The notes beneath the pieces are model-generated. The model saw nothing but the letters and a program-made list of their open reading frames with translations, was not told the DNA's origin and made no database searches. The position numbers and the translations under genes are program-made. Below, piece by piece: positions 20,002 through 30,714 of a stretch of DNA of 59,356 bases. This DNA comes from a virus (Duplodnaviria > Caudoviricetes): the IMG/VR virus record IMGVR_UViG_3300034073_001486, positions 1 to 59,356 of that record, one strand, 5' to 3'. Positions within the stretch are counted from its first letter, which is position 1. Each line of letters opens with the position of its first letter.

Positions 20002-20564
20002 GGGAGGGGGTTCAGCGTGAAGGTGCCATTGGCGTTGATGGTGACCGTGGCGACATTGGTTGTGGCACAGCCGTTCTGCGATCCCGGGCTCACGGACAGC
20101 GTTTGCTCTGTCGCATTGTCCCCGACGCACTGAACCCGCACCGTGACGTTTCCGCTGCCGCCGGCCGGCGTGTACCATCCGGCATTGAGACTCACGGTCG
20201 TCGATCCGCTCCACTGGTTTGCAGCCAAGGCGGCGCCAAACAGGATGGTGACCGTCTCCGCCTCAGACCCGCCCGTGTTGTCCGTCCACCCGGTCATGTA
20301 CGTGGTCGACGACGCACCGCAGTCGTACCCCACGGTGGTGCCCAAAAAGGTGGTGCCAGTGTCTAGGTCGCTCTGGCCGGTGTTGCTCCAGTCGTAGGTG
20401 ATCAGGAGAGATTCACACCCGCCACACGGTGTCGCCTGGCACACGCCCGAGCAGCAGTACTCGCCAGCCTGACAGCAGGTGCCCGTGGGCCCACCACAGC
20501 AGCACTTGCCTTGATCGCCCTCGGCACAGTCCACGCCACCGCAACAACACCGGCAACAGGCCAT
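19998..20564 (-). CDS. Cys-rich protein with beta-rich C-terminal domain
   Basis: 16 Cys in the first 50 aa; AGGAG RBS. Confidence 0.75.
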   Translation of the reverse strand: MACCRCCCGGVDCAEGDQGKCCCGGPTGTCCQAGEYCCSGVCQATPCGGCESLLITYDWSNTGQSDLDTGTTFLGTTVGYDCGASSTTYMTGWTDNTGGSEAETVTILFGAALAANQWSGSTTVSLNAGWYTPAGGSGNVTVRVQCVGDNATEQTLSVSPGSQNGCATTNVATVTINANGTFTLNPLP

Positions 20565-20952
20565 GAGACACTCCTACCAACGAGTGCGACACATGGGGGC
20601 CAGAGGCTAGAAAAAATGCGGCAACCAACGCGGCGACACGCGGCGACAGACGGGCCGCAGGAAGCGAGAGACACGGGGAAAACCGTATGGGGGCGGAGAG
20701 GGTGAAAAAAGTCAGGAGGGGATATGACATGAATACGCTGTCGCGCCGGGGGGCCCTGGGGGTGCCTTTGTGCGTGGTGGCATGATCGGCGGAGTGATCG
20801 TAACCCGTTGCCACCACAAGACTTAGTGGCTTCCGCAAGACTCCTCTGGGAAACTGGCGGTTTTCCGTCATGCTTTTGGCGGTTTTCTTTCACGCCTTTC
20901 GGCGTCCGCGTGCATTGCCCCCCACGCTCCCCCTCCCGGTCGGCGCAGGAAA

Positions 20953-20980
20953 AACCCTACCCCCTCGCGAGGGTAGGGTT
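20953..20980. other. Inverted repeat centred on TCGCGA
   Basis: aaccctacc(cc)ctcg|cgagggtagggtt. Confidence 0.7.
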
Positions 20981-21006
20981 CGATGGTCGCCGGTCGGCCG
21001 TCCAGC

Positions 21007-21765
21007 CTATCGGCCGCTGAATGCCTCCCGCATGGTGTCGGCCGTTACCCCTGCCGGAATACGCTTCTGGGTTGTCGGCATCGCCCGATTCAGAATCGTA
21101 CCCCTACGCTGAAAGTTGAACCGCACATACCGGCGTATTTCAATGTCCGTCCGGTCGGCATGCCTCGCCAAAACATCCAGCGTATACCCTACGCTGTTTC
21201 GCGTCTTGAACCAGCGGCAACGCTTGTCTGCATAATCTTGCAAAACGGCCGTCATGCCCCCCCGGAGTTTATTCGGGAGGCCCTTCCGGGATCGACGCGC
21301 CGAGGCATTTTTCGGCAGCACAAGTTCCCCACTGGCGGATTCAATGGCCGAAACCAGCAACGCAGGATCGGCCGACCTGCTGGCCATCCCTGCCCCCCTA
21401 GAATCGTCGGCATCGCGCCGCCGATGGTCTGCTGCCGATCCCTGCGCCTGCCCCGGTTGCCTCCAATGGCGAACGCGGGCCCGTCCGGCATGAAACAACA
21501 TCGCCCGCAAGTGACGGCCGATTTCCGAAAGCGTAGGGGGGAACAACGTCCGGCCATTCCGGGCAATGTAGTCTAACTCGCGGCCGATCCAGTCGTCAGC
21601 CATCCATTCCAGAATGATACTCTGGCGAACATCCTCCCGCATGCTGTCCGGGAGTGGTGTTTCGCCGTTTGCCGATCCGTGCCGATTTAGATAGCGATCT
21701 AATCTCGCCAGCACGGATTCAAGGTCGGCCGCTGAAATGGTAACGGGGGTATAGGCATCGTTCAT
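21007..21765 (-). CDS. Hypothetical basic protein divergent from the early operon
   Basis: GGAGG RBS before MNDAYTP; 252 aa. Confidence 0.65.
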   Translation of the reverse strand: MNDAYTPVTISAADLESVLARLDRYLNRHGSANGETPLPDSMREDVRQSIILEWMADDWIGRELDYIARNGRTLFPPTLSEIGRHLRAMLFHAGRARVRHWRQPGQAQGSAADHRRRDADDSRGAGMASRSADPALLVSAIESASGELVLPKNASARRSRKGLPNKLRGGMTAVLQDYADKRCRWFKTRNSVGYTLDVLARHADRTDIEIRRYVRFNFQRRGTILNRAMPTTQKRIPAGVTADTMREAFSGR

Positions 21766-21884
21766 GGTGTCGATCCTCCACAAGTGTGATCGGCCGGGCA
21801 TCGGCCGCTGGTGTCTAATGTATCATATCGGCCGCTGGTGTCTATACCTTTACTATCGGCCGAAACGAACGCCAAAATATTTTT

Positions 21885-22100
21885 CGGATTTTCCCCGGGG
21901 GGTAAAGGATTACTAAATGGCCAACAAACGCGGCCGACCGCACAATATAACGCGGCCGGACGAACGCGGCCGACCGAAACAACGCGGCAAACGGCCGACG
22001 TTTCGGTATGGTGGCGACGATTCTATTCCCCACCATACCCCCGAAAAAAATCTCCGGATTTTCCCCGGGGGGTAAAGGATTACTAAATGGCCAACAAACG
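21885..22100. repeat. Two perfect 46-bp direct repeats (21885-21930 and 22055-22100)
   Basis: cggattttccccggggggtaaaggattactaaatggccaacaaacg present twice, period 170 bp. Confidence 0.95.
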
Positions 22101-22163
22101 GCCCACAACGCGGGGAGAGAACGTATTACTCCTCGCGCATGCGGGCAGGTAAGGAGGTTCATC

Positions 22164-22283
22164 ATGGACGATGATGCCGATGATATCTCTCCGTTGTTCC
22201 TTCTCTGGGAGGAATACGCGGAGCAGTTAGAAAACGACATGTCTCAGGTCGATGACTGGGATGATTGGTTCGATGAGGAGTGA
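22164..22283 (+). CDS. 39-aa highly acidic peptide, first gene of the early block
   Basis: AAGGAGGT RBS; 17 D/E and no K/R. Confidence 0.65.
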   Translation: MDDDADDISPLFLLWEEYAEQLENDMSQVDDWDDWFDEE

Positions 22284-22287
22284 TTCC

Positions 22288-22782
22288 ATGTACCAGCCCG
22301 AGCGGCTGGAGCGGTGGACGATGCCTCGGGATTACTTCGGTGCCGAATGGCCGGAGTACTATTCCGCCGGTGTCGGCCGCTCCAGGGATTCGGACTGCTT
22401 GGAGGAATCTAACTTCCACGCCATGCTGGCAGCCCTCGGTGGCGAATCGGAGACCGTCCAGGTTGTCCGTGAGTCACACTGGGCCGTTGGCTGGGTGGAG
22501 TGGATTGCCATCCATGAGTCCGACACATGGTCGCTGAAGGTAGCCGATGGGCTGCGGATGCGGCTGGATTCTTACCCTGTCTTGGACGAGGGCGACTGGT
22601 CCAACCGGGAATACGAGGAATGCGAACGCGTCTGGTCGGAGTGCTACACCGACCGGGAGCGTATTCGCTACCTGCGTGATCGCGGTGTTACACGCGGCTT
22701 CCGTGAACTACGGGCAGCCGTCAATGGCGACTGGCATGAGGCATGCAATCTGCTGCCGTGCCCGTCTGACCTGATCTCCTGA
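22288..22782 (+). CDS. Hypothetical early phage protein
   Basis: GAGGAG RBS; SRDSDCLEESNF, HWAVGWVEWI and YPVLDE motifs. Confidence 0.75.
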   Translation: MYQPERLERWTMPRDYFGAEWPEYYSAGVGRSRDSDCLEESNFHAMLAALGGESETVQVVRESHWAVGWVEWIAIHESDTWSLKVADGLRMRLDSYPVLDEGDWSNREYEECERVWSECYTDRERIRYLRDRGVTRGFRELRAAVNGDWHEACNLLPCPSDLIS

Positions 22783-22787
22783 GGAAG

Positions 22788-22977
22788 CCCGGGGGTGGCG
22801 TGGAGTCGATCCCACGCTGCCCCCGGGTAGGACGGTGTCTGAATAGCCCCCTCTGGGCAAAACGCATTCGACGGAGTGCGTAGTCAACGCTGGGAGAGCC
22901 GCCACCGCCCGTGCTAGCCGGCATCGGTGGCCTGTAATCCAACCGTTCGCTCAGAGGGTGCTATTCGGCTGCCGTTC
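22788..22977 (+). ncRNA. Candidate structured RNA (16-bp hairpin plus 29-bp closing stem with internal hairpins)
   Basis: Long stems whose non-Watson-Crick positions are mostly G-U on the + strand. Confidence 0.55.
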
Positions 22978-23009
22978 GGTAGTCGTTCTCTCTAACGATG
23001 AGGTGCTAC

Positions 23010-23894
23010 ATGGGTTACCATGTCGCCCGCATCGTCCAAGATGGCGAAGGAAACGCCAAGATTCGCCACGGGATGCAGGACTATAAAGTCTGCACCGTGT
23101 CGCTGCTGGCGTCCGATGCTTCGGGGTACAACATGTGCCCCAAGGCATACCCCATCACGCGGTTCCGTGAACTGCGTGCGACGGGCTGGACGCTGGAGGC
23201 TATCCGCGAGGATGCACAGAGCAAAGACTTAGCGCTCTGCTCTGTGCCCTGTGTCACCTCCCAATCTGGGCAGGGTGCCATTGGTGAAGTGCCCGAGATT
23301 CGGGCCAATCTCACCCGCTGGTACGTGGAGAATCGGGAGGAGTTTCGCAGCCATCTCTTGGACGAGTTGCGGGGCTATGTTCGCCGAGCCGGGGATGCTG
23401 TTGTCGCATGCCGGCCAAACCTGGATTCCGATGCTCCTTGGGAGCGGACGATACCCGAGATGTTTGACCTGCCGATCCGCTATTGGGACTACACCAAGGT
23501 TTCCAAGCGGCTAGGCAAGGTGCCGGGTAACTATCACCTGACCTATTCGGTCAGTGAGGCTACGACGGCGGAAGACTGGCAGCGGGTCTACGACACGGGC
23601 AGTTCCATATCCGTCGTCTTTGACTCCGAGTGGATGCCGAGCGGCAAGCAGCAGTACCACAGGTTCGGGCGGCTTCCTAAGTGGTACACCGACCCGAATG
23701 GGTATCGGTGGCGTGTGGTGGACGGGGACAGAACCGACCTTCGGTTCCTGGATCCTGCCCAAGTCTGCGTCGGCCTGAGGTTGAAGGGCCGCAAGTGGGA
23801 ACGCTGGTTCGCCCGGTGGTCCGGTTTTGCCGTCAGGCTGCCCCGTGCGTTGCGGGGCGTGTTCGGGAACATTCATCCGGCGAATGCCGCGTGA
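23010..23894 (+). CDS. Gp88-like phage protein (radical SAM-related fold)
   Basis: CP...CxxxC, RPNLDSD, WDYTK, NYHLTYS, VVDGDxxDLRFLDP and VGLRLKG motifs. Confidence 0.7.
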   Translation: MGYHVARIVQDGEGNAKIRHGMQDYKVCTVSLLASDASGYNMCPKAYPITRFRELRATGWTLEAIREDAQSKDLALCSVPCVTSQSGQGAIGEVPEIRANLTRWYVENREEFRSHLLDELRGYVRRAGDAVVACRPNLDSDAPWERTIPEMFDLPIRYWDYTKVSKRLGKVPGNYHLTYSVSEATTAEDWQRVYDTGSSISVVFDSEWMPSGKQQYHRFGRLPKWYTDPNGYRWRVVDGDRTDLRFLDPAQVCVGLRLKGRKWERWFARWSGFAVRLPRALRGVFGNIHPANAA

Positions 23895-23902
23895 GGTGTG
23901 AC

Positions 23903-24127
23903 ATGGGGTACACGCTGACGGACTCCAAACTGCGTTCACTGAAGGCCGCCGTGACCAAGGCGCAGAACAGGCGGGATTGGCCAGGGGTGATCATTGCCTG
24001 CGACAGGGCAGAATCTGCCTTCCGCAAGCACGGGCACCCGGATTGCTGGGCAGACTTTGTGCGGCATCGGGAAGACGCGGAGGTGCAAATGAAACTGCTG
24101 TCGTTTACGGGCCCGATCTTTTCTTAG
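23903..24127 (+). CDS. Hypothetical early protein
   Basis: GAGGTG RBS. Confidence 0.6.
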   Translation: MGYTLTDSKLRSLKAAVTKAQNRRDWPGVIIACDRAESAFRKHGHPDCWADFVRHREDAEVQMKLLSFTGPIFS

Positions 24128-24137
24128 GAGGTGTGAT

Positions 24138-24383
24138 ATGGCGAGCGTGACAAGCCGCCTCGTACGAGCGGCTGACGATCTGCGTGAACTGCGGATCGAC
24201 CTGCACAACCTAGCGATCCGGCTGCTGGAGGACGATGCGGGCTTGTCCGCTGAGTCTTACTGGCTGCTGGATCAGGTGTTTCAACGGGTAGGCGGGCTTG
24301 CAACGCTCACTGCCCGCAAGCGTAACGACGGGCGGTTTTATCTCTCCCCTATGGCACAGGTGACACATGCCGGAACTGACTGA
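24138..24383 (+). CDS. Hypothetical early protein
   Basis: AGGAGGT RBS. Confidence 0.65.
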   Translation: MASVTSRLVRAADDLRELRIDLHNLAIRLLEDDAGLSAESYWLLDQVFQRVGGLATLTARKRNDGRFYLSPMAQVTHAGTD

Positions 24384-24570
24384 CCTGGAGCAGGGCAGGT
24401 GCTTTGTCCTGCTCAGTGACTGCGAGACATGGGACACGGTGCAGGACTGCGTGGTGCGGTTCTCAACCGCAGAGCAGGAGGATGATCGGGAATGGGGCGA
24501 CCGGATCGAAGGATACCGGGATATCTCCATCGAAGAACTGGTGCGGCATTACCTTGCTACAAAGGGGTGA
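24367..24570 (+). CDS. Hypothetical acidic early protein
   Basis: AGGTG RBS; coupled to neighbours. Confidence 0.6.
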   Translation: MPELTDLEQGRCFVLLSDCETWDTVQDCVVRFSTAEQEDDREWGDRIEGYRDISIEELVRHYLATKG

Positions 24571-24573
24571 GAT

Positions 24574-24879
24574 ATGGCCTACAACGGCTGGACGAACTAC
24601 GAAACGTGGAACGTCAAGCTCTGGATCGACAACGACCAGGGCGAACAGGAGTTTTGGCAGGAGCGGGCCGAGGACTGCATTGCCAACACGGACGATGACG
24701 GGGATGCGATTGCGGCCCTGTCGAACGAGTTGGAGGCGGCGTACGACGAGCTGTACGAACAGCAGAAAATGCCGCCCGGCCCACTGTCCGACATCCTGCG
24801 GGCGGCGTTGTCTGAGGTGAACTGGCATGAGATTGCCAGCCATATGGTCGAAGACGCAAAGGAGGTGAGTGATGCGTGA
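24574..24879 (+). CDS. Conserved acidic phage protein (YNGWTNYETW family)
   Basis: YNGWTNYETWNVKLWIDND...VNWHEIA. Confidence 0.75.
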   Translation: MAYNGWTNYETWNVKLWIDNDQGEQEFWQERAEDCIANTDDDGDAIAALSNELEAAYDELYEQQKMPPGPLSDILRAALSEVNWHEIASHMVEDAKEVSDA

Positions 24880-25099
24880 CAGCGTGTCCTTCCGTGCCGA
24901 GGTGGCGTGCCGTGCTGCGGTGGCGTGGTGTGCCGAGGACATCCAAACCCTGCGGCCAGGGTGGAGCGATGCCGAATGTATCGCGTGGCTGGAGTGGAAC
25001 GCAGACGTTATCCAGACCCGCATGATCGAACGTGGCTGGGATGTGATCCATGATCTCTTACTGCGGGAGGAAGACGATGCCGCCGCTGAAGATAGGTAG
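24872..25099 (+). CDS. Hypothetical early protein
   Basis: GGAGGTG RBS. Confidence 0.65.
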   Translation: MRDSVSFRAEVACRAAVAWCAEDIQTLRPGWSDAECIAWLEWNADVIQTRMIERGWDVIHDLLLREEDDAAAEDR

Positions 25100-25289
25100 T
25101 TATACCCTGCCTGACCCCGATGTTATCGGACAGGCAGAGTACCGTGCGCTCTGGGAACACCTGGATTGCAACATGCTTGATGAGCATTCCGCCACGGCTG
25201 TGCCGGAAGCGATCTACATTTTGGAGGAGATGAGAGACTGGTGTGCGTCTTTGATTACCGACATCACACATGGAAACGGAGGTGAGTGA
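25077..25289 (+). CDS. Hypothetical early protein
   Basis: GGAGG RBS. Confidence 0.6.
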   Translation: MPPLKIGSYTLPDPDVIGQAEYRALWEHLDCNMLDEHSATAVPEAIYILEEMRDWCASLITDITHGNGGE

Positions 25290-25453
25290 TGGCAGAAAAA
25301 GTGTACGAGTTTACGTTCATGTGCGTTCAGGCTGCCGAGACATACGAGGAAGCCTTGGAGGCTGCCTTGCAGTACCTGTACGAGCAGCCTGTTGAGCCGA
25401 CTGCGTGGCGTGAGTTGGGCCAGTCCGAATACGAGGAGGTGAGCAATGCGTGA
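25289..25453 (+). CDS. 54-aa acidic early protein (MAEKVYEFTF...)
   Basis: Translated by hand; GGAGGTG RBS, TGATG coupling. Confidence 0.6.
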   Translation: MAEKVYEFTFMCVQAAETYEEALEAALQYLYEQPVEPTAWRELGQSEYEEVSNA

Positions 25454-25784
25454 AGATAGCGTGCAGGTGGGGCGGTTCGACGTGCATGGCGCGTCGTTCG
25501 TCCTGTGCCGGGTGAGTTACAGCAAGGGGCGCGGGTACTTCTTTGCCGCTGATCCATGCGAAGACATGGGCGACGGTGTGATCTCCATCAACCTGGGTGA
25601 TGTCTATCGGGCGGGCAGGCTGGAGCTACTGAAGGAGGCCAAGCGGTTCTCGCAGAAGACCTTCGATGAACTGGCAGCCAAGTGGCGTGCGGCGTGTGAT
25701 GCCGAGGCCCCGGAAGTCATGCGACATGTGGCCGAGGTGACCGAGCGAATGAAACCGGAGGTTCCCCATGTGCCCTCAGTGTAA
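25446..25784 (+). CDS. Hypothetical early protein
   Basis: GGAGGTG RBS. Confidence 0.65.
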   Translation: MREDSVQVGRFDVHGASFVLCRVSYSKGRGYFFAADPCEDMGDGVISINLGDVYRAGRLELLKEAKRFSQKTFDELAAKWRAACDAEAPEVMRHVAEVTERMKPEVPHVPSV

Positions 25785-25885
25785 CTGCTGTGAGGTGGCC
25801 TGGGCTGCCCCGCTGGGATCGTTATTCCATGCCTGCTGTAGGGCATGTGGATGGGTGTATACTACGGACCCCGAGGAGGTGTGTG

Positions 25886-26113
25886 ATGAGGTCCATGACT
25901 AGCGATTACCTGCTGTCCATACCCGGGCAGTATGCCGTGCGGATAGAGGCCATGCTGCATGACCGGCTGGAGCAAGCGTTCCAGGCAGCCCGGTCTGAGC
26001 AGGAGCCGGTGCTGAAGAGTGAACTGTACAGCGAGGCCGCCATGTATGCGGACATGCTGGTGTGCTTTGCCGAGGCCGAGGAATGCGAGGAGGTGAGCGA
26101 TGCCAACGATTGA
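25886..26113 (+). CDS. Hypothetical early protein
   Basis: GAGGAGGT RBS downstream of a TATACT box. Confidence 0.6.
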   Translation: MRSMTSDYLLSIPGQYAVRIEAMLHDRLEQAFQAARSEQEPVLKSELYSEAAMYADMLVCFAEAEECEEVSDAND

Positions 26114-26282
26114 ACTGACAGACGAGCAGGCGGAGGAGTTGAAAGACTCTCTCAGCCATGACATCGACTACTATGACCGTGAGATTGCCAATGCGGAGAA
26201 GACTGGCGACGAGGACATCATCATGTTCCGCCATATCCGCTCCGTACTGTCCGACATCCTTCACCTACTGGAGATTGCGTGA
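26100..26282 (+). CDS. Small acidic protein (MPTIELT family)
   Basis: GGAGGTG RBS. Confidence 0.65.
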   Translation: MPTIELTDEQAEELKDSLSHDIDYYDREIANAEKTGDEDIIMFRHIRSVLSDILHLLEIA

Positions 26283-26593
26283 TGGCACATACACCTGGGC
26301 CTTGGTACGTGGGTAAGTATGGAGACAACGACGCCGACGTCTGTGCCGAAGGCGGGCCTGTTATCTGTGCGATGCGAGGAGGGGCGGCGGAGCCCACGGA
26401 CCCAACGTCCGACGATGACGCAGCCCTCATTGCCGCAGCCCCAGACTTGCTGGACGCGCTTCTGTCGTTTGTGGAACTAGACGCGGACGGCAGCCTGCAT
26501 ATCGACGGCAGCCCAGCGACAGAAGACCCGGTGATCACCGCCGCCAAGCGGGCCATCGCCAAGGCAGAAGGGAGGCACCATGCCGACACTTGA
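26282..26593 (+). CDS. HTPGPW...LIAAAPDLL family phage protein
   Basis: Characteristic N-terminal and internal motifs. Confidence 0.75.
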   Translation: MAHTPGPWYVGKYGDNDADVCAEGGPVICAMRGGAAEPTDPTSDDDAALIAAAPDLLDALLSFVELDADGSLHIDGSPATEDPVITAAKRAIAKAEGRHHADT

Positions 26594-26756
26594 CCTGACC
26601 GAAGCCGAGGCCGATGCCGTGCGGTGTGCCCTGTCGGTTTTTGCCGACCGCATGGGGCAGTGCTACCGGGCAACACAGCACCCAGACTACGACGACCAAG
26701 AGCGACTGTGCGATGCGGTGGTAGAGAAACTCAACAGGGCAGAAGGGAGGGAGTGA
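26580..26756 (+). CDS. 58-aa protein (MPTLDLT family)
   Basis: Translated by hand; GGAGG RBS, TGATG coupling. Confidence 0.6.
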   Translation: MPTLDLTEAEADAVRCALSVFADRMGQCYRATQHPDYDDQERLCDAVVEKLNRAEGRE

Positions 26757-27070
26757 TGGCACATACACCTGCACCTTGGTGGATTGATGAGGACTTAGAC
26801 TGTCTCTGCATCTGCGATGGCGAGGCCAATGAGTTTGGCGAACGCGAGGAGATCGCAGTGCTGTACACCAACCGCCCATCGCTTCGGGCGGTACAGCCAG
26901 CTAACGCCCAACTCATCGCAGCCGCCCCAGACCTGTTAGCTGCGCTGAAGCAAGCGGTCACTGCGTTGAACGTGGCCAAGCGCTTCAAGGTTCAAGACAC
27001 GGACAGCTATCAGATTGCATCCGCGTGCGATGCAGCGATTCGGAGGGCAGAGGGGAGGACCGATGGTTAA
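26756..27070 (+). CDS. Second HTP(G/A)PW...LIAAAPDLL family protein
   Basis: Paralog of 26282..26593. Confidence 0.75.
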   Translation: MAHTPAPWWIDEDLDCLCICDGEANEFGEREEIAVLYTNRPSLRAVQPANAQLIAAAPDLLAALKQAVTALNVAKRFKVQDTDSYQIASACDAAIRRAEGRTDG

Positions 27071-27260
27071 CTTGCAACTAACGCTAGATCAGTACACTTA
27101 CCTGCGGCATGCGGTAAGGCGTGACCTGGACACACTGGAGGAGATGGAGGCGTGGGAGATCGATGACAACGGTCCCGGGCATGAGCGGGAGATCCGGCGC
27201 TGCAAGGCACTGGCCAAGCTGCTGGATAACGTGGAGCAAGAGCAGGTGATCCTACACTAG
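27063..27260 (+). CDS. Small protein (MVNLQLT...)
   Basis: GGAGG RBS. Confidence 0.6.
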   Translation: MVNLQLTLDQYTYLRHAVRRDLDTLEEMEAWEIDDNGPGHEREIRRCKALAKLLDNVEQEQVILH

Positions 27261-27309
27261 AGGGCAATTCGTTCCGGCTGTTTGGGCCTCGGCCCCGAAG
27301 GACGACACG

Positions 27310-27348
27310 GGTGGCGGCGATGCCGGATAGCCGCCACCTATTTTTCTT
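27310..27348 (+). terminator. Intrinsic terminator
   Basis: GGTGGCGGC...GCCGCCACC followed by TATTTTTCTT. Confidence 0.7.
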
Positions 27349-27359
27349 GGAGGTAAGTG

Positions 27360-27605
27360 ATGAGTGACAGGCAAAAGCTGGCGGCGCTGATCGCCGCAGC
27401 GAGGGGCGTCAATGACGCGGTGATGCGTGACCCTGGCGGGTTCTGCGTGGAAACTCTCCACGCTTTGGTGGCTTTGTGTGAGGCAGCAGGATTGCCGGAC
27501 TGCTCCGGCGTGACAGCCGTAACCGACTGGGAAATCAGCGGCGAGGGCGAAGAGAACGTGCGATTCTTTGGGGCTGGCGCCCATGTCGACGCCGAGCAAA
27601 ACTAA
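27360..27605 (+). CDS. Hypothetical protein
   Basis: GGAGGT RBS. Confidence 0.6.
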   Translation: MSDRQKLAALIAAARGVNDAVMRDPGGFCVETLHALVALCEAAGLPDCSGVTAVTDWEISGEGEENVRFFGAGAHVDAEQN

Positions 27606-27616
27606 GGAGGCAGCAG

Positions 27617-27838
27617 ATGACGAGAGCATTTCCAACCGATGAGTACTATGACGAGCGGCGCATCGGGCAGCATGAGGGCATGGAACTACGTGATTTCTTT
27701 GCCGCCCACGCGATGGCCGGACTTCTCGCGCCGAATGTTCCGTGGGACGAGCAATCGGTTCCTGTGTATGCAGAAATGGCATACGAATACGCCGACGCCA
27801 TGCTGGCGGCGCGGCGGCGCAAGGGGTCCAAGGCATGA
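27617..27838 (+). CDS. Small conserved phage protein (LRDxFAA...ADAML family)
   Basis: GMELRDFFAAHAMAGLLA...AYEYADAMLAAR; AAGGAGG RBS. Confidence 0.75.
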   Translation: MTRAFPTDEYYDERRIGQHEGMELRDFFAAHAMAGLLAPNVPWDEQSVPVYAEMAYEYADAMLAARRRKGSKA

Positions 27839-28095
27839 GCGACTGGATCAGTTTCTTCGACAGACTGCCAACGGCTGGGCAGACGATCTACTACTACGGA
27901 CCAGACATCGGCGTGTGGCGTGGCGCATACGCCTACTCGCCGTCCGATCCCGTGTCTCCGCACCTGATCCACTGTGGCGAATCGCCAGGAGTTGCAGATC
28001 GCATGGACGCTCCATGGTGGCAACCGTTTGATGGCCAGGACAGGCCGTCCGCACCAGAAGCTCCGTATCCAAGCAACTACCCGGGAGGTGAGTGA
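27835..28095 (+). CDS. Hypothetical protein with DUF551-like N-terminus (WIS...RLP)
   Basis: ATGA coupling. Confidence 0.6.
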   Translation: MSDWISFFDRLPTAGQTIYYYGPDIGVWRGAYAYSPSDPVSPHLIHCGESPGVADRMDAPWWQPFDGQDRPSAPEAPYPSNYPGGE

Positions 28096-28313
28096 TGGTC
28101 GCAGCGTGGATGGTTAGGGGCTACATGCTGGAGGGTGAGCGCCTGTACTTCGATGCGGCGAGGAGGGTGGAGAACTCACCCAAGCTGCGGCCGTACAAGG
28201 ACATCATCCTTGGTGACTGGCCGGAGGGAGACGATCACCTGCGTTGGGTGATCGAAGCCAAGGTGAGTGAGATTGTGGCGTGGGCTAAACAGATACGGGA
28301 GGATAGTGAATGA
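28095..28313 (+). CDS. Hypothetical protein
   Basis: GGAGGTG RBS. Confidence 0.6.
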   Translation: MVAAWMVRGYMLEGERLYFDAARRVENSPKLRPYKDIILGDWPEGDDHLRWVIEAKVSEIVAWAKQIREDSE

Positions 28314-28723
28314 CAGACAGTGAGATCATGCAGGACTTGTTTGATACGTTTGAGGTGACCAACAAGCTCAACGCCATCGTCGGCGTGGAGAACTTCTTGG
28401 CGGCTCGGCATGCCTTGCTAGACCTGGGGCCCAAGGCCGACACGCCAGCCGTGCAGGTCATGTCCTGCTGCAAGATGCTGTACAAGGCCATCGGTCCACG
28501 CCTCTTCAAGTCCTTCGTCACCTTGGAGAATGTCGCCCCGAGCGAAGGGCTGGATGATGTGTGGAGCCACTGGTGTCCGCTCCCGCCGGACGTTGAACTG
28601 CACAAGCAGGACTATCCGGCCGGCACGCTGCCGCTGTGGAGCAACGGTTCGTCGGTTGTCTTTGCCAGACTTGTGACAGACAAGCACGGCAATGAGGAGT
28701 TCGATTTCGCAGTAACCAAGTAA
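28310..28723 (+). CDS. Hypothetical protein
   Basis: GGAGG RBS; 137 aa. Confidence 0.65.
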   Translation: MTDSEIMQDLFDTFEVTNKLNAIVGVENFLAARHALLDLGPKADTPAVQVMSCCKMLYKAIGPRLFKSFVTLENVAPSEGLDDVWSHWCPLPPDVELHKQDYPAGTLPLWSNGSSVVFARLVTDKHGNEEFDFAVTK

Positions 28724-28734
28724 GGAGTATCACT

Positions 28735-28809
28735 ATGGACAAGGATGTCCCAATGATTCTTGAGCTGGTGGTGGTGGTGATTCGCATTGTCTTGGAGGTG
28801 ATTCGATGA
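28735..28809 (+). CDS. 24-aa hydrophobic peptide MDKDVPMILELVVVVIRIVLEVIR
   Basis: TAAGGAG RBS. Confidence 0.45.
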   Translation: MDKDVPMILELVVVVIRIVLEVIR

Positions 28810-28883
28810 GTGAACTAGCAGATTTCTTGGTCGGCTCGGCCGGGGTGATCCTGGTCCTGTGGTTCTCGTCACGCGGTGGGTGA
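28806..28883 (+). CDS. 25-aa hydrophobic peptide MSELADFLVGSAGVILVLWFSSRGG
   Basis: GGAGGTG RBS, ATGA coupling. Confidence 0.45.
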   Translation: MSELADFLVGSAGVILVLWFSSRGG

Positions 28884-28887
28884 CACC

Positions 28888-29679
28888 ATGATCTACGGCT
28901 ATGCCCGTGTGAGCACGGACGAGCAGTCGGATTCGATCACGGCTCAGGTTGCCACGCTGAAGCGGTTCCTTGCCGAGTCAGGCATGGAGTCCGGAGGCGT
29001 GTTCGCAGATGAGAACGTGTCGGGCTCCGGCATCTGGTTCCGGAACCGGCCGCAAGGGAAGCGGGTGTACGACGCCTTGGCCCCGGGCGACATCTTGGTC
29101 GTCACGGTGCAGGACAGACTCACCCGTAACCTTGCGGACTGGGCCACCATGATGGAGGCGAGGAGGAACATCGGCTGGCAGCTATACATCCTCCAGGCGG
29201 GCCGCTACATCCAGAGTCCCGAGGATGAGATGGTCTACGGCATGCTCGCCTGCGTGGGGGCCTATGAGCCCAGGCGTACCAGCGCCCGGGTCAAGGCCGT
29301 GGCCGAGCATCGTCGCAAGCACGGGCTACCCTATGGCCCGAGCCGCCCGGTCGGATGGCAGAGCAAGGACGGGCAGTACATACCCCTGCCGGCGGAGCGG
29401 GCCATTGCCGACGAGGCGTTACGACTGCGAGAGCAGGGCGTTACTTACCCGGCAATCGCTTTGCGGTTTTGTCACAAGGGCTACAGGAAGCCTGGGCGTT
29501 CCGCCCGGTCGGCTGGCTGGTACTCCCCCGTAGATGTACGGAGTCTTTGTCTCGCGGCTGGAGCCGGATATCCAAAGATTCCGCGATCCGTTTGGAAAGT
29601 TTCTGCGACCGCAGAGAAGCTATGCGCAGAGGTATCTGGTGGTCCTCGGCCAGCTTCCGCAGCGTCGATCCCCGCATGA
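28888..29679 (+). CDS. Serine recombinase (resolvase/invertase family)
   Basis: YGYARVSTDEQ, DENVSG, RP and DRLTR motifs. Confidence 0.9.
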   Translation: MIYGYARVSTDEQSDSITAQVATLKRFLAESGMESGGVFADENVSGSGIWFRNRPQGKRVYDALAPGDILVVTVQDRLTRNLADWATMMEARRNIGWQLYILQAGRYIQSPEDEMVYGMLACVGAYEPRRTSARVKAVAEHRRKHGLPYGPSRPVGWQSKDGQYIPLPAERAIADEALRLREQGVTYPAIALRFCHKGYRKPGRSARSAGWYSPVDVRSLCLAAGAGYPKIPRSVWKVSATAEKLCAEVSGGPRPASAASIPA

Positions 29680-30076
29680 AGCGATCCCAGGCCAGCTCCT
29701 GATCCTCATCGTCCAGCTCCTCAATCGCCAGCCGGACATGGTCCAGCTCGTCGAACATGGGCTTGAGATCAGCCGCCTCTTCCAGCGTCAGCTTGGTTTC
29801 CGCTGGCTGCCTCGTCTCCTTCTTGATCCACTTGAGCATCCCGTTCAGCATGGCCCTGGCGAAGTAGGCTTTCGGATACGGAAGCTTGGTTTTATCGTAC
29901 GTTCGGGCGGCTTTCGTCAGAGCTAGCAGACCTTCGGCCTCCAGGTCATCGACGAACAGGCCCCGCTGCCACGCCGGGCGGGACTGGACAAAGTAGCGGG
30001 CGAGGATCTTGGCGAGCGGGAAGTACTCAGCCGCCAGTGCCTGTCTTGTTTTTGAGAGCTTCGATCTCTTTCTCAT
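29441..30076 (-). CDS. Phage sigma-70-family factor
   Basis: Region 2 DDLEAEGLLALTKAARTYD...YF; region 4 HTH TLRKLAEDHQI. Confidence 0.8.
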   Translation of the reverse strand: MRKRSKLSKTRQALAAEYFPLAKILARYFVQSRPAWQRGLFVDDLEAEGLLALTKAARTYDKTKLPYPKAYFARAMLNGMLKWIKKETRQPAETKLTLEEAADLKPMFDELDHVRLAIEELDDEDQELAWDRFMRGSTLRKLAEDHQIPLRIASLRSQKLSKRIAESLDIRLQPRDKDSVHLRGSTSQPTGRNAQASCSPCDKTAKRLPGK

Positions 30077-30254
30077 GGTGATCTAGCCGGGCCTCATGGT
30101 TCTGAATGGCCTGATGCAACTCTTGCACCAGCTCTGGCAGGTGTTCGACCGAGGCGGCGATGATCGCCACCTTGGTGTGTATAGAGACCGCCCACGGAAT
30201 GACGGCCGCCGCCACCGAGATCAACACCAACCATGCTTCTGCCTCCAAGCTCAT
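30027..30254 (-). CDS. Small TM plus coiled-coil protein (holin/spanin-like)
   Basis: N-terminal TM segment followed by HEARLDHHE coiled coil. Confidence 0.55.
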   Translation of the reverse strand: MSLEAEAWLVLISVAAAVIPWAVSIHTKVAIIAASVEHLPELVQELHQAIQNHEARLDHHEKEIEALKNKTGTGG

Positions 30255-30484
30255 TCGTCTTCCCTCCCGACCATCATCAACAACATGAGACCCGCATACG
30301 GATGCAGCCGACCATCGGCCACATGCTCGCGTATGATCCAGGTCGCTCTCTCTTGTTCGTCATCGGGGTACTGGTAAACGTGTGTGTGTCCGTCGATCAC
30401 GGCGATGAGTCGATTGCATCGAACGCCTCCGCTCTCAGACGGCTGACCCCATGCCGACGATTCAATATCCATCGTTCGATCCAC
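30251..30484 (-). CDS. Hypothetical protein
   Basis: ATGA coupling with the downstream gene; start uncertain. Confidence 0.5.
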   Translation of the reverse strand: MDRTMDIESSAWGQPSESGGVRCNRLIAVIDGHTHVYQYPDDEQERATWIIREHVADGRLHPYAGLMLLMMVGREDE

Positions 30485-30714
30485 CGTGCGATGAGCGAAG
30501 CCAAGAGGGGGAGGACGAAGGCGATGAAGAACGGGTTGAGCGTGGGGTTTCTGCGTCGGTACTCTTCGATGATTCGGTGGGCATAGGTGCTGTCGGGCTC
30601 GTCCGGCGCAAGCATGATTGCCACCAACGCCACGCCCCTTGCACGTCGACTGAGTCGTTCGGTTCTCGTTGCACGGATCGCACGCTCCGCTATCGCTTCG
30701 GCTTCAGTTCGCAT
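30397..30714 (-). CDS. Membrane protein
   Basis: FFIAFVLPLLASLIARWI hydrophobic segment. Confidence 0.55.
   Translation of the reverse strand: MRTEAEAIAERAIRATRTERLSRRARGVALVAIMLAPDEPDSTYAHRIIEEYRRRNPTLNPFFIAFVLPLLASLIARWIERWILNRRHGVSRLRAEAFDAIDSSP

Follow-up and report, generated by a model that had tools for sequence, protein, structure and literature searches.

What is encoded by some 190 nt of DNA that fold into two long stems between a pair of small phage genes, and what might such a structure do for the genes on either side of it? Phage early regions are mosaics of constantly exchanged genes, and how expression stays reliable in them is poorly understood. The locus discussed here occupies 22788-22977 of the window, that is, of the whole stretch of DNA analysed, a complete virus record of 59,356 nt from a tailed phage. 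The structural genes of this phage (portal, terminase and tail proteins) lie on the - strand, and a block of small genes on the + strand, presumed to be an early operon, spans approximately 22165 to 30586 and includes a serine recombinase. The locus falls within a 227-nt spacer of this block, between the stop codon of the upstream gene (22780-22782) and the ATG of a gp88-like gene (23010). A sequence-only reading had proposed a single structured RNA of about 190 nt at this place, with three guesses as to its function: an early decoy or sponge RNA, an antitermination element, or an RNA excised by RNase III. The features needed to follow the argument are these:

22288-22782, + strand: upstream early gene (phrog_4313, E 8.7e-08), homologues of which precede the leader in several relatives
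22788-22827, + strand: hairpin 1, a GC-rich stem of 16 bp with 2 G-U and an 8-nt loop
22830-22858, + strand: P1 5' arm, conserved core 22833-22857
22862-22881, + strand: class-A interior, P2 hairpin (8 bp, GACG loop)
22886-22947, + strand: class-A interior, P3 domain, variable at its tip and with the inner helix 22901-22907/22925-22931
22949-22977, + strand: P1 3' arm, conserved core 22950-22974
22966-22985, + strand: hairpin D, 8 bp with a GUUC loop, followed by a U/C-rich run and placed just before the ribosome-binding site
22995-23035, + strand: translation-start hairpin (predicted fold), enclosing the Shine-Dalgarno sequence GAGGTG (23000-23005) and the ATG (23010-23012)
23010-23894, + strand: gp88-like gene, 294 aa (Pfam PF17338 GP88, E 2.9e-19; phrog_1617, E 5.2e-34)

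Fold and modules of the spacer

Both long stems described at the outset were recovered when the sequence was re-read. Hairpin 1 (22788-22803/22812-22827) has 16 pairs including 2 G-U, and the P1 stem (22830-22858/22949-22977) has 29 positions, made up of 22 Watson-Crick pairs, 5 G-U pairs (at 22831, 22836, 22837, 22840 and 22856) and 2 mismatches, both pyrimidine (22838/22969 and 22848/22959). The two sub-hairpins noticed inside P1 (22862-22869/22874-22881 and 22901-22907/22925-22931) are likewise present in the minimum-energy fold. As RNA, the + strand of 22788-22977 has a predicted energy of -117.3 kcal/mol against -78.5 +/- 4.7 for shuffled sequences (z -8.24), and none of 200 shuffles was as good, making the fold far more stable than its controls. 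The - strand reaches -95.3 kcal/mol (z -5.19), leaving the + strand better by 22 kcal/mol, and the + strand folded with DNA parameters gives -54.6 (z -5.34). The proposal that selection acts on a + strand RNA, rather than on a DNA palindrome, is borne out by this strand asymmetry, by the compensatory changes found in relatives and by a constant orientation with the operon.

The element had been said to match no recognised tRNA, terminator or ribozyme core, and this impression held. Searches of the whole window against Rfam 15 returned no family at the gathering threshold, the best sub-threshold match in 22600-23200 scoring 19.8 bits against a threshold of 100. ARAGORN found no tRNA or tmRNA gene in the window or in five relatives, and Rfam models together with a hammerhead motif scan found no known self-cleaving ribozyme in the window.

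The idea of one 190-nt RNA survives as to its structure but not as to its unity. The stretch consists of two modules, hairpin 1 (22788-22827), which is specific to the window, and P1 (22830-22977), which is optional among relatives. A 21-nt core of hairpin 1 has no match in viral contigs; by positional comparison, the hairpin occupies the place taken in relatives by a long hairpin termed S1, and its apical part resembles a local hairpin of the S1 5' arm. In P1, conservation among relatives does not extend to the three pairs at the outer end (22830-22832/22975-22977), and the last 11 nt of the 3' core (22964-22974), TTCGGCTGCCG, form a strand that is shared with hairpin D and is also the repeat that bounds the P1 indel in relatives.

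The P1 family and the leader around it

Protein-anchored and pattern searches yielded viral loci (6 + 20), 24 loci from metagenomes and a single contig from a metagenome-assembled genome (MAG) labelled uncultured Rubrivivax. Removal of duplicates left 34 flanked instances, and the addition of rarer stem variants brought the family to at least 39 distinct modules, with 24 distinct arm pairs, in uncultured phages sampled mostly from freshwater. A nearly invariant stem of 22-26 bp is common to all modules. A degenerate two-arm pattern search for divergent members returned already known loci only, and a covariance model run against 150 other genomes of the MAG's bacterial family found no copies; the single binned contig provides only a hint of a Rubrivivax-like host. 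A full-text literature search with the P1 arm motifs retrieved no papers. The P1 family is a new RNA motif, absent from Rfam 15, although its general kind is already known, and it is sufficiently well supported to be added to RNA family libraries.

Across 22 core stem positions in the 24 arm pairs, 440 cells are Watson-Crick, 53 are G-U, 2 are A-C and 33 are other combinations, and under a covariance model for its own type the window reaches 181 bits on the + strand, against 37 bits on the - strand. One variable stem position keeps its pairing (C-G in 19 arm pairs, U-A in 4 and U-G in 1), another alternates between U·C (17) and U-G (6), and three rare versions of the distal stem (the L059/L062, L087 and L005/L056 types) retain pairing through several double changes. 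The covariation anticipated in relatives is clear for the class-A fold and weak for P1 alone. The whole class-A fold, which is that of the window, is 98.4% paired over 17 sequences compared with 34-45% when slid, with 3 pairs showing double changes and none of 500 shuffles reaching its covariation score. P1 alone is 88.4% paired, compared with 29-48% when slid, with 2 pairs showing double changes; 73 of 500 shuffles reach its score, and MAFFT misaligns the rare variants. The formal covariation of P1 is weak because most of its pairs never vary.

Orientation is the same as that of the operon in all 34 flanked instances, and in 32 of them a Shine-Dalgarno sequence and start codon follow the module's 3' end at a distance of no more than about 35 nt. 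In L036 the start is 86 nt away, and in L027 the first of two tandem P1-type modules is followed by the second. A second type of long-stem module also stands in tandem upstream of the P1 module at L023:9322-9503 and L005:2653-2823, with base strands as in P1, a different distal stem and a 130-nt interior. Ahead of P1 in one metagenome contig, L049:1148-1190 on the - strand of the locus resembles the 3' half of a tRNA, with a T-arm-like portion; ARAGORN finds no tRNA there, and a different small gene follows P1.

P1 itself is accessory. When the search was anchored on the two other types of downstream gene, 44 close relatives emerged at 70% protein identity or more; the P1 base motif is present in 17 of them and absent from 27, and it occurs in none of 110 more distant relatives. 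Phages whose downstream proteins are 95-100% identical differ by a clean indel of P1, bounded by an 11-12 nt direct repeat, TTCGGYTRCCG. Without P1, the leader runs in the order stop codon, S1 long hairpin, hairpin D, U/C-rich run, GGAGGTG and ATG. All 19 distinct leaders of this kind have an S1 whose 5' arm starts at the upstream stop codon, and the interior of S1 is also variable. The base strands of P1 are the same as those of S1, and because of this identity P1 looks like a tandem paralogue of S1. The window is atypical in bearing hairpin 1 in place of a canonical S1.

In each of four complete relatives and in the window, the shared strand marks a single locus with 1-3 copies, always on the operon strand. 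The leader is always single per genome and lies between an upstream early gene and a member of one of two unrelated families, the GP88-like proteins and a 270-aa type. Over the 34 instances, the downstream gene encodes a GP88-like protein of 294-297 aa in 9, a GP88-like protein of 249 aa in 7 (E 9.5e-33) and the 270-aa type in 16, with another gene in one instance and the second module in the last. The 270-aa type, 7 of 25 members of which match DUF7227 weakly, was rejected as a relative of GP88 (BLASTP E 2.6; hhalign probability 0.2%). The upstream genes also differ among the 34 instances, and with both neighbours variable, the leader marks an operon slot rather than one gene family. It may be described as a conserved RNA joint between variable genes, reaching from stop codon to ribosome-binding site and built of repeatable hairpin units with common base strands, in operons that also use hammerheads before ribosome-binding sites.

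Hairpin D lies at the 3' end of this joint. It uses the last 9 nt of the P1 3' arm and is therefore mutually exclusive with the P1 base. In single-sequence folds of 40 distinct versions, D forms in 39 (median z -3.3), with about ten compensating stem versions, which together indicate that it is selected. In the intact RNA of the window, the P1 base has a predicted pair probability of 0.93-0.95 against approximately 0.05 for D, and forcing D costs 4.1 kcal/mol; in fragments starting inside the P1 3' arm, D is the predicted 5'-terminal hairpin. With its U/C-rich tail, D of the window scored as terminator-like, and the U-run after D is absent from 4 of the 39 D-forming versions, of the GGTAGCCATTCA, GGTAACCATTCA and GGCAGTCACA types, representing 20 loci. 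An upstream partner of the P1 5' base, hairpin U (at least 9 pairs), is found in 17 of the 34 instances, and the window has no real partner of this kind (z 0.2). In P1-less leaders, the states with the S1 base or D paired are separated by 1.0 kcal/mol (L061) and 2.5 kcal/mol (L073). For all three downstream gene types (the window; L061, L073 and L135-L137), the Shine-Dalgarno sequence and start codon are enclosed in a predicted hairpin with the first codons, which suggests that translation of the slot's gene may need activation. Pairing of a free D strand with the ribosome-binding site was not found in the common type.

The operons of relatives also carry candidate type II hammerhead ribozymes one gene earlier, of which examples are given here:

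L010:3417-3477 (same contig as L054:871-931) and L004:2334-2393, operon strand: hammerhead candidates
L058:668-729, L133:863-918 and others, operon strand: further hammerhead candidates

They number 13 distinct sequences, whose stems covary; all lie on the operon strand and end 10-25 nt before the Shine-Dalgarno sequence of the gene just ahead of the S1/P1 leader. With 39 bits, one exceeds the Rfam gathering score of 37, and 10 of 12 further loci score 29.8-35.3 bits. In L058, the gene following the hammerhead is a homologue of the window's own upstream gene. The window has no hammerhead by Rfam or motif scan, with no match at E<=1 in 20200-22800. Placed as they are 5' of a ribosome-binding site, the hammerheads of relatives imply that cleavage at such a position is already used in this operon type. 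In an earlier report (PMC3088659), hammerheads flank phage genes, one of them lying 13 nt before an early start codon and coinciding with a mapped 5' end.

Processing, cargo and competing readings

The reading tentatively preferred here, plausible if short of probable, is that of a cis-acting mRNA processing and insulation leader, the stems of which would be cut by a double-strand-specific RNase and the end-capping hairpins of which would be encoded beforehand. On this view, S1 of relatives would be the parent form of a modular long hairpin and P1 an accessory copy of it. The long, near-perfect stems would be cut by a double-strand-specific endoribonuclease, for which host RNase III is the obvious candidate, and the cut would uncouple the gp88 cistron from the sequence upstream. 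The severed strands would then refold into the small hairpins encoded alongside: hairpin D would cap the new 5' end, just before the ribosome-binding site, and the new 3' end, that of the upstream mRNA, would be capped by hairpin 1 in the window and by hairpin U or the local S1 5'-arm hairpin in relatives. Both products would be protected in this way, the downstream gene would gain a leader independent of its context, and a by-product of some 90-140 nt, the interior, would be set free. We infer the cleavage, its enzyme and the stabilising effect from how long the stem is and where it lies, from the strand that its base shares with a neighbouring hairpin, from the fold predicted once a cut is simulated and from the ribozymes found in this type of operon. 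The evidence thereby favours a processed RNA over the two other functions guessed initially.

With 29 positions, 27 of them paired, the P1 stem has the approximately two helical turns or more of an RNase III site. Against the processing reading stands the dispensability of P1, 27 of 44 close relatives being without it, so that any essential processing must reside in S1 and D, and the window lacks a canonical S1. The near-invariance of the stem sequence is not explained by an RNase III model alone, since RNase III needs little sequence specificity, and the selection on the interiors is left unaccounted for too. The occurrence of a single leader in each genome, in contrast to the repeated sites of T7-type early regions, the weak formal covariation of P1 and the lack of a hammerhead in the window also count against this reading. 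If the stems are indeed processing sites, they represent a natural insulator design of use for the annotation of uncultured phages and for synthetic biology.

The interiors of the modules introduce a second possibility. Between identical arms, they range from about 40 to 180 nt and fall into at least ten unrelated types, and they assort independently of their flanks, as L005 has a module 96% identical to that of the window beside a gp88 gene only 68% identical, and L003 and L004 have gp88 genes 93-95% identical to the window's with interiors 59-64% identical. In class A, one P2 pair is U-G in 7 of 17 sequences, U-A in 5, G-C in 4 and C-G in 1, and the P3 tip is replaced in relatives by different hairpins or a short tetraloop. 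In class B, the P2 loop GAUCAGC is kept on at least 5 different stems beside a complementary GCUGA, with which it could form a pseudoknot. The interiors are thus themselves subject to structural selection.

Such behaviour would suit an RNA in which the stem is a carrier or processing stem and the interior a functional early small RNA (a decoy, sponge, regulator or unrecognised ribozyme) differing from phage to phage, and this account is possible, if unlikely. Its strength lies in the diversity of interiors between constant arms, in their independent assortment, in the structure that they keep (the covarying P2 of class A and the class-B loop) and in a presence and absence between near-identical phages that resembles that of accessory early genes. 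Retention of GAUCAGC on at least 5 stems also fits a functional cargo better than a mere spacer. No interior, however, matches a known RNA family; the longest antisense match of the window's interior in the phage genome is 12 nt, a length equalled in 95 of 200 shuffles; the contigs of public RNA runs, a kind of data unable to reveal one, contain no discrete small RNA; and it is the stem, not the interior, that is the best-conserved part. The early guess of a decoy or sponge is retained only as a minority reading. In a form of this account that seems similarly doubtful, the invariant stem would be a universal adapter through which exchangeable RNA cassettes are swapped, stacked (1-3 in tandem) and dropped at one slot of the early operon. 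If that were true, the cassettes would be cut from the early transcript and act alone, as an anti-defence decoy, a regulator or a self-cleaving or ligand-binding fold, and the slot would be the equivalent, in RNA, of the places where phage early regions carry variable accessory genes. Functional cargos would, more generally, constitute a class of exchangeable phage small RNAs.

The overlapping base strands could also support a conformational relay, a reading that must be considered quite unlikely. The alternative pairings would be chained from the S1 base through hairpin U and the P1 base to hairpin D; a ribosome terminating at the upstream stop codon would open the first helix, and the change would reach D and set read-through or downstream translation, with P1 as a relay unit that preserves the function. 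The placement of the S1 5' arm at the stop codon in all 19 distinct P1-less leaders is as such a relay would have it, as are the near balance of S1 base and D (1.0 kcal/mol in L061; 2.5 kcal/mol in L073), the repetition of the same base strands with a short linker in each module, the terminator-like score of D with its U/C-rich tail, and the separate hairpins that hold the start region in each of the three gene types. The chain is nevertheless broken in the window, where hairpin 1 lacks the base motif, no real U exists (z 0.2) and the P1 base is locked (0.93-0.95). Moreover, the U-run is missing after D in 4 of 39 D-forming versions, and the free D strand has no pairing with the ribosome-binding site in the common type.

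A DNA-level or selfish element, its RNA fold incidental, is improbable in any of its variants, whether a palindrome like that of a miniature transposable element, a site for a recombinase or invertase, a joint at which gene modules recombine, or a signal in single-strand DNA. The clean presence and absence with an 11-12 nt direct repeat at the borders may be read in this manner, as may the conserved arms around swapped interiors with variable genes on both sides, the tandem copies in L027, L005 and L023, the serine recombinase gene in the same operon (28876-29679) and the significance of the DNA fold (z -5.3). However, no inversion was detected: none of 741 module pairs share 14-mers in inverted orientation, compared with 150 pairs that share them in the same orientation. 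The conserved G-U pairs are A-C mismatches on the other strand, and the stem holds 53 G-U against 2 A-C. There is but one locus per genome, of fixed orientation and register between stop codon and ribosome-binding site, and no copies occur in 150 other genomes of the linked bacterial family. The direct repeat, finally, is part of the stem, as is expected of tandem duplication or deletion of a hairpin unit rather than of transposition.

An element that acts on RNA polymerase, either a put-like RNA for processive antitermination or an intrinsic terminator or attenuator, hardly merits belief, for while the position within the first kilobase of the presumed early operon, the stable stem-loops and the terminator-like score of D would suit it, the module is optional, its interior variable, its site single per genome and without an Rfam match, and the U-run after D is not conserved, leaving the antitermination element guessed at first with nothing in its support. 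A small chance is left to something outside all of these readings.

Known systems and the surrounding region

Processing hairpins cut by RNase III are familiar from phage early mRNAs, as in the early region of T7 and the N leader of lambda. After the cut, the remaining parts of the hairpin stabilise the products and can alter translation of the next gene. The element shares with these hairpins its long double-stranded stems and its intercistronic or leader position in an early polycistronic transcript. It differs from the T7-type sites, which lie between most genes, in having one locus per genome, and from the T7 and lambda hairpins in that its stem is near-invariant with a swapped interior, its module is optional and its cleavage is putative.

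Correia elements offer a second parallel. In Neisseria mRNA they form long hairpins that RNase III binds or cuts (PMC2649163). They measure about 100-160 nt, with terminal inverted repeats and variable cores, are often found 5' of genes and co-transcribed with them, use TA sites for insertion and reach over 100 copies in a genome (PMC2649163). The phage module shares with them inverted repeats of comparable length at its ends, a variable core between these, and presence or absence between strains. Unlike them, the module has one locus per phage genome, its 11-12 nt bounding repeat is part of the stem, and P1 keeps a fixed register between stop codon and ribosome-binding site. A miniature element of the Correia type was rejected on copy number, one locus and not many copies being found in each of four complete relatives and the window.

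RNA cleavage just upstream of the ribosome-binding site, which frees a gene from its upstream context, is common to hammerheads flanking phage genes (PMC3088659) and the synthetic RiboJ insulator (PMC6206723). The candidate type II hammerheads of the relatives occupy the same position one gene upstream. The window's element differs from hammerheads and RiboJ in matching no ribozyme model and in conserving a long regular helix where those have a catalytic core. In Cluster K mycobacteriophages, the extended start-associated sequences are inverted repeats of 17 bp with spacers of 4-13 bp; many genes in each genome have them, linked to a 13-bp start-associated motif (PMC3203893). Like P1, they are imperfect repeats around a variable spacer, lie just upstream of the starts of non-structural genes, keep a single orientation, are conserved and have an unexplained function (PMC3203893), whereas the P1 arms measure 26-29 nt/bp, its structured interiors 40-180 nt and its locus is single. 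A Cluster K sequence was rejected on arm length, spacer size and number of sites.

An invertible DNA switch (inverton) was also rejected, with no flipped pair among the 741. Integron attC sites form arrays, each after a cassette and with conserved core sites; judged on arrays alone, an attC site was rejected for a locus that is single per genome. By analogy, the element would seem to function most like the RNase III hairpins of phage early mRNAs and the Correia elements in mRNA; copy number, spacer size, target duplication and model scores place it within none of these systems.

A PDB sequence search with the gp88-like product gave chance-level matches only, its matches in the ESM Atlas are GP88 clusters only, and an AlphaFold model from a 45-sequence alignment has a mean pLDDT of 52.2; a full-text literature search for PF17338 returned no papers. 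The upstream gene is listed as an open reading frame from 22252, with ATG 22288 (MYQPER...) as its likely start, and its stop codon, TGA, lies 5 nt ahead of hairpin 1. At the level of DNA, 22000-24000 has no similar sequence in deposited phage genomes. Seven public RNA runs from two studies contain small shares of the sampled words; the contigs from four of these runs are limited to 22965/23027-23300, at the start of gp88, and cannot show RNA ends, and one contig bears a sequence upstream of the gp88 start that is unlike the window.

Further along the + strand block, the serine recombinase (28876-29679) matches phrog_95 integrase (E 1.4e-35) and phrog_125 DNA invertase (E 3.4e-28), and no link between it and the long hairpin was found. 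By codon-position GC, the approximately 1.9 kb of 20215-22164 hold few convincing genes, the sole long frame being one of 264 aa on the - strand (21007-21801), without a PHROG match. Immediately beyond, at 22165-22284, what is apparently the opening gene of the + strand operon is a 39-codon open reading frame that has a strong Shine-Dalgarno sequence and stops where the next gene starts; its peptide is highly acidic, with many D, E and W residues. The divergent region between the - and + strand blocks contains two sets of direct repeats: 21800-21817 and 21827-21844 are copies of an 18-nt unit, and 21884-21930 and 22054-22100, 170 nt apart, are copies of one of about 46 nt. Both sets are probably operators or promoters of the early operon.
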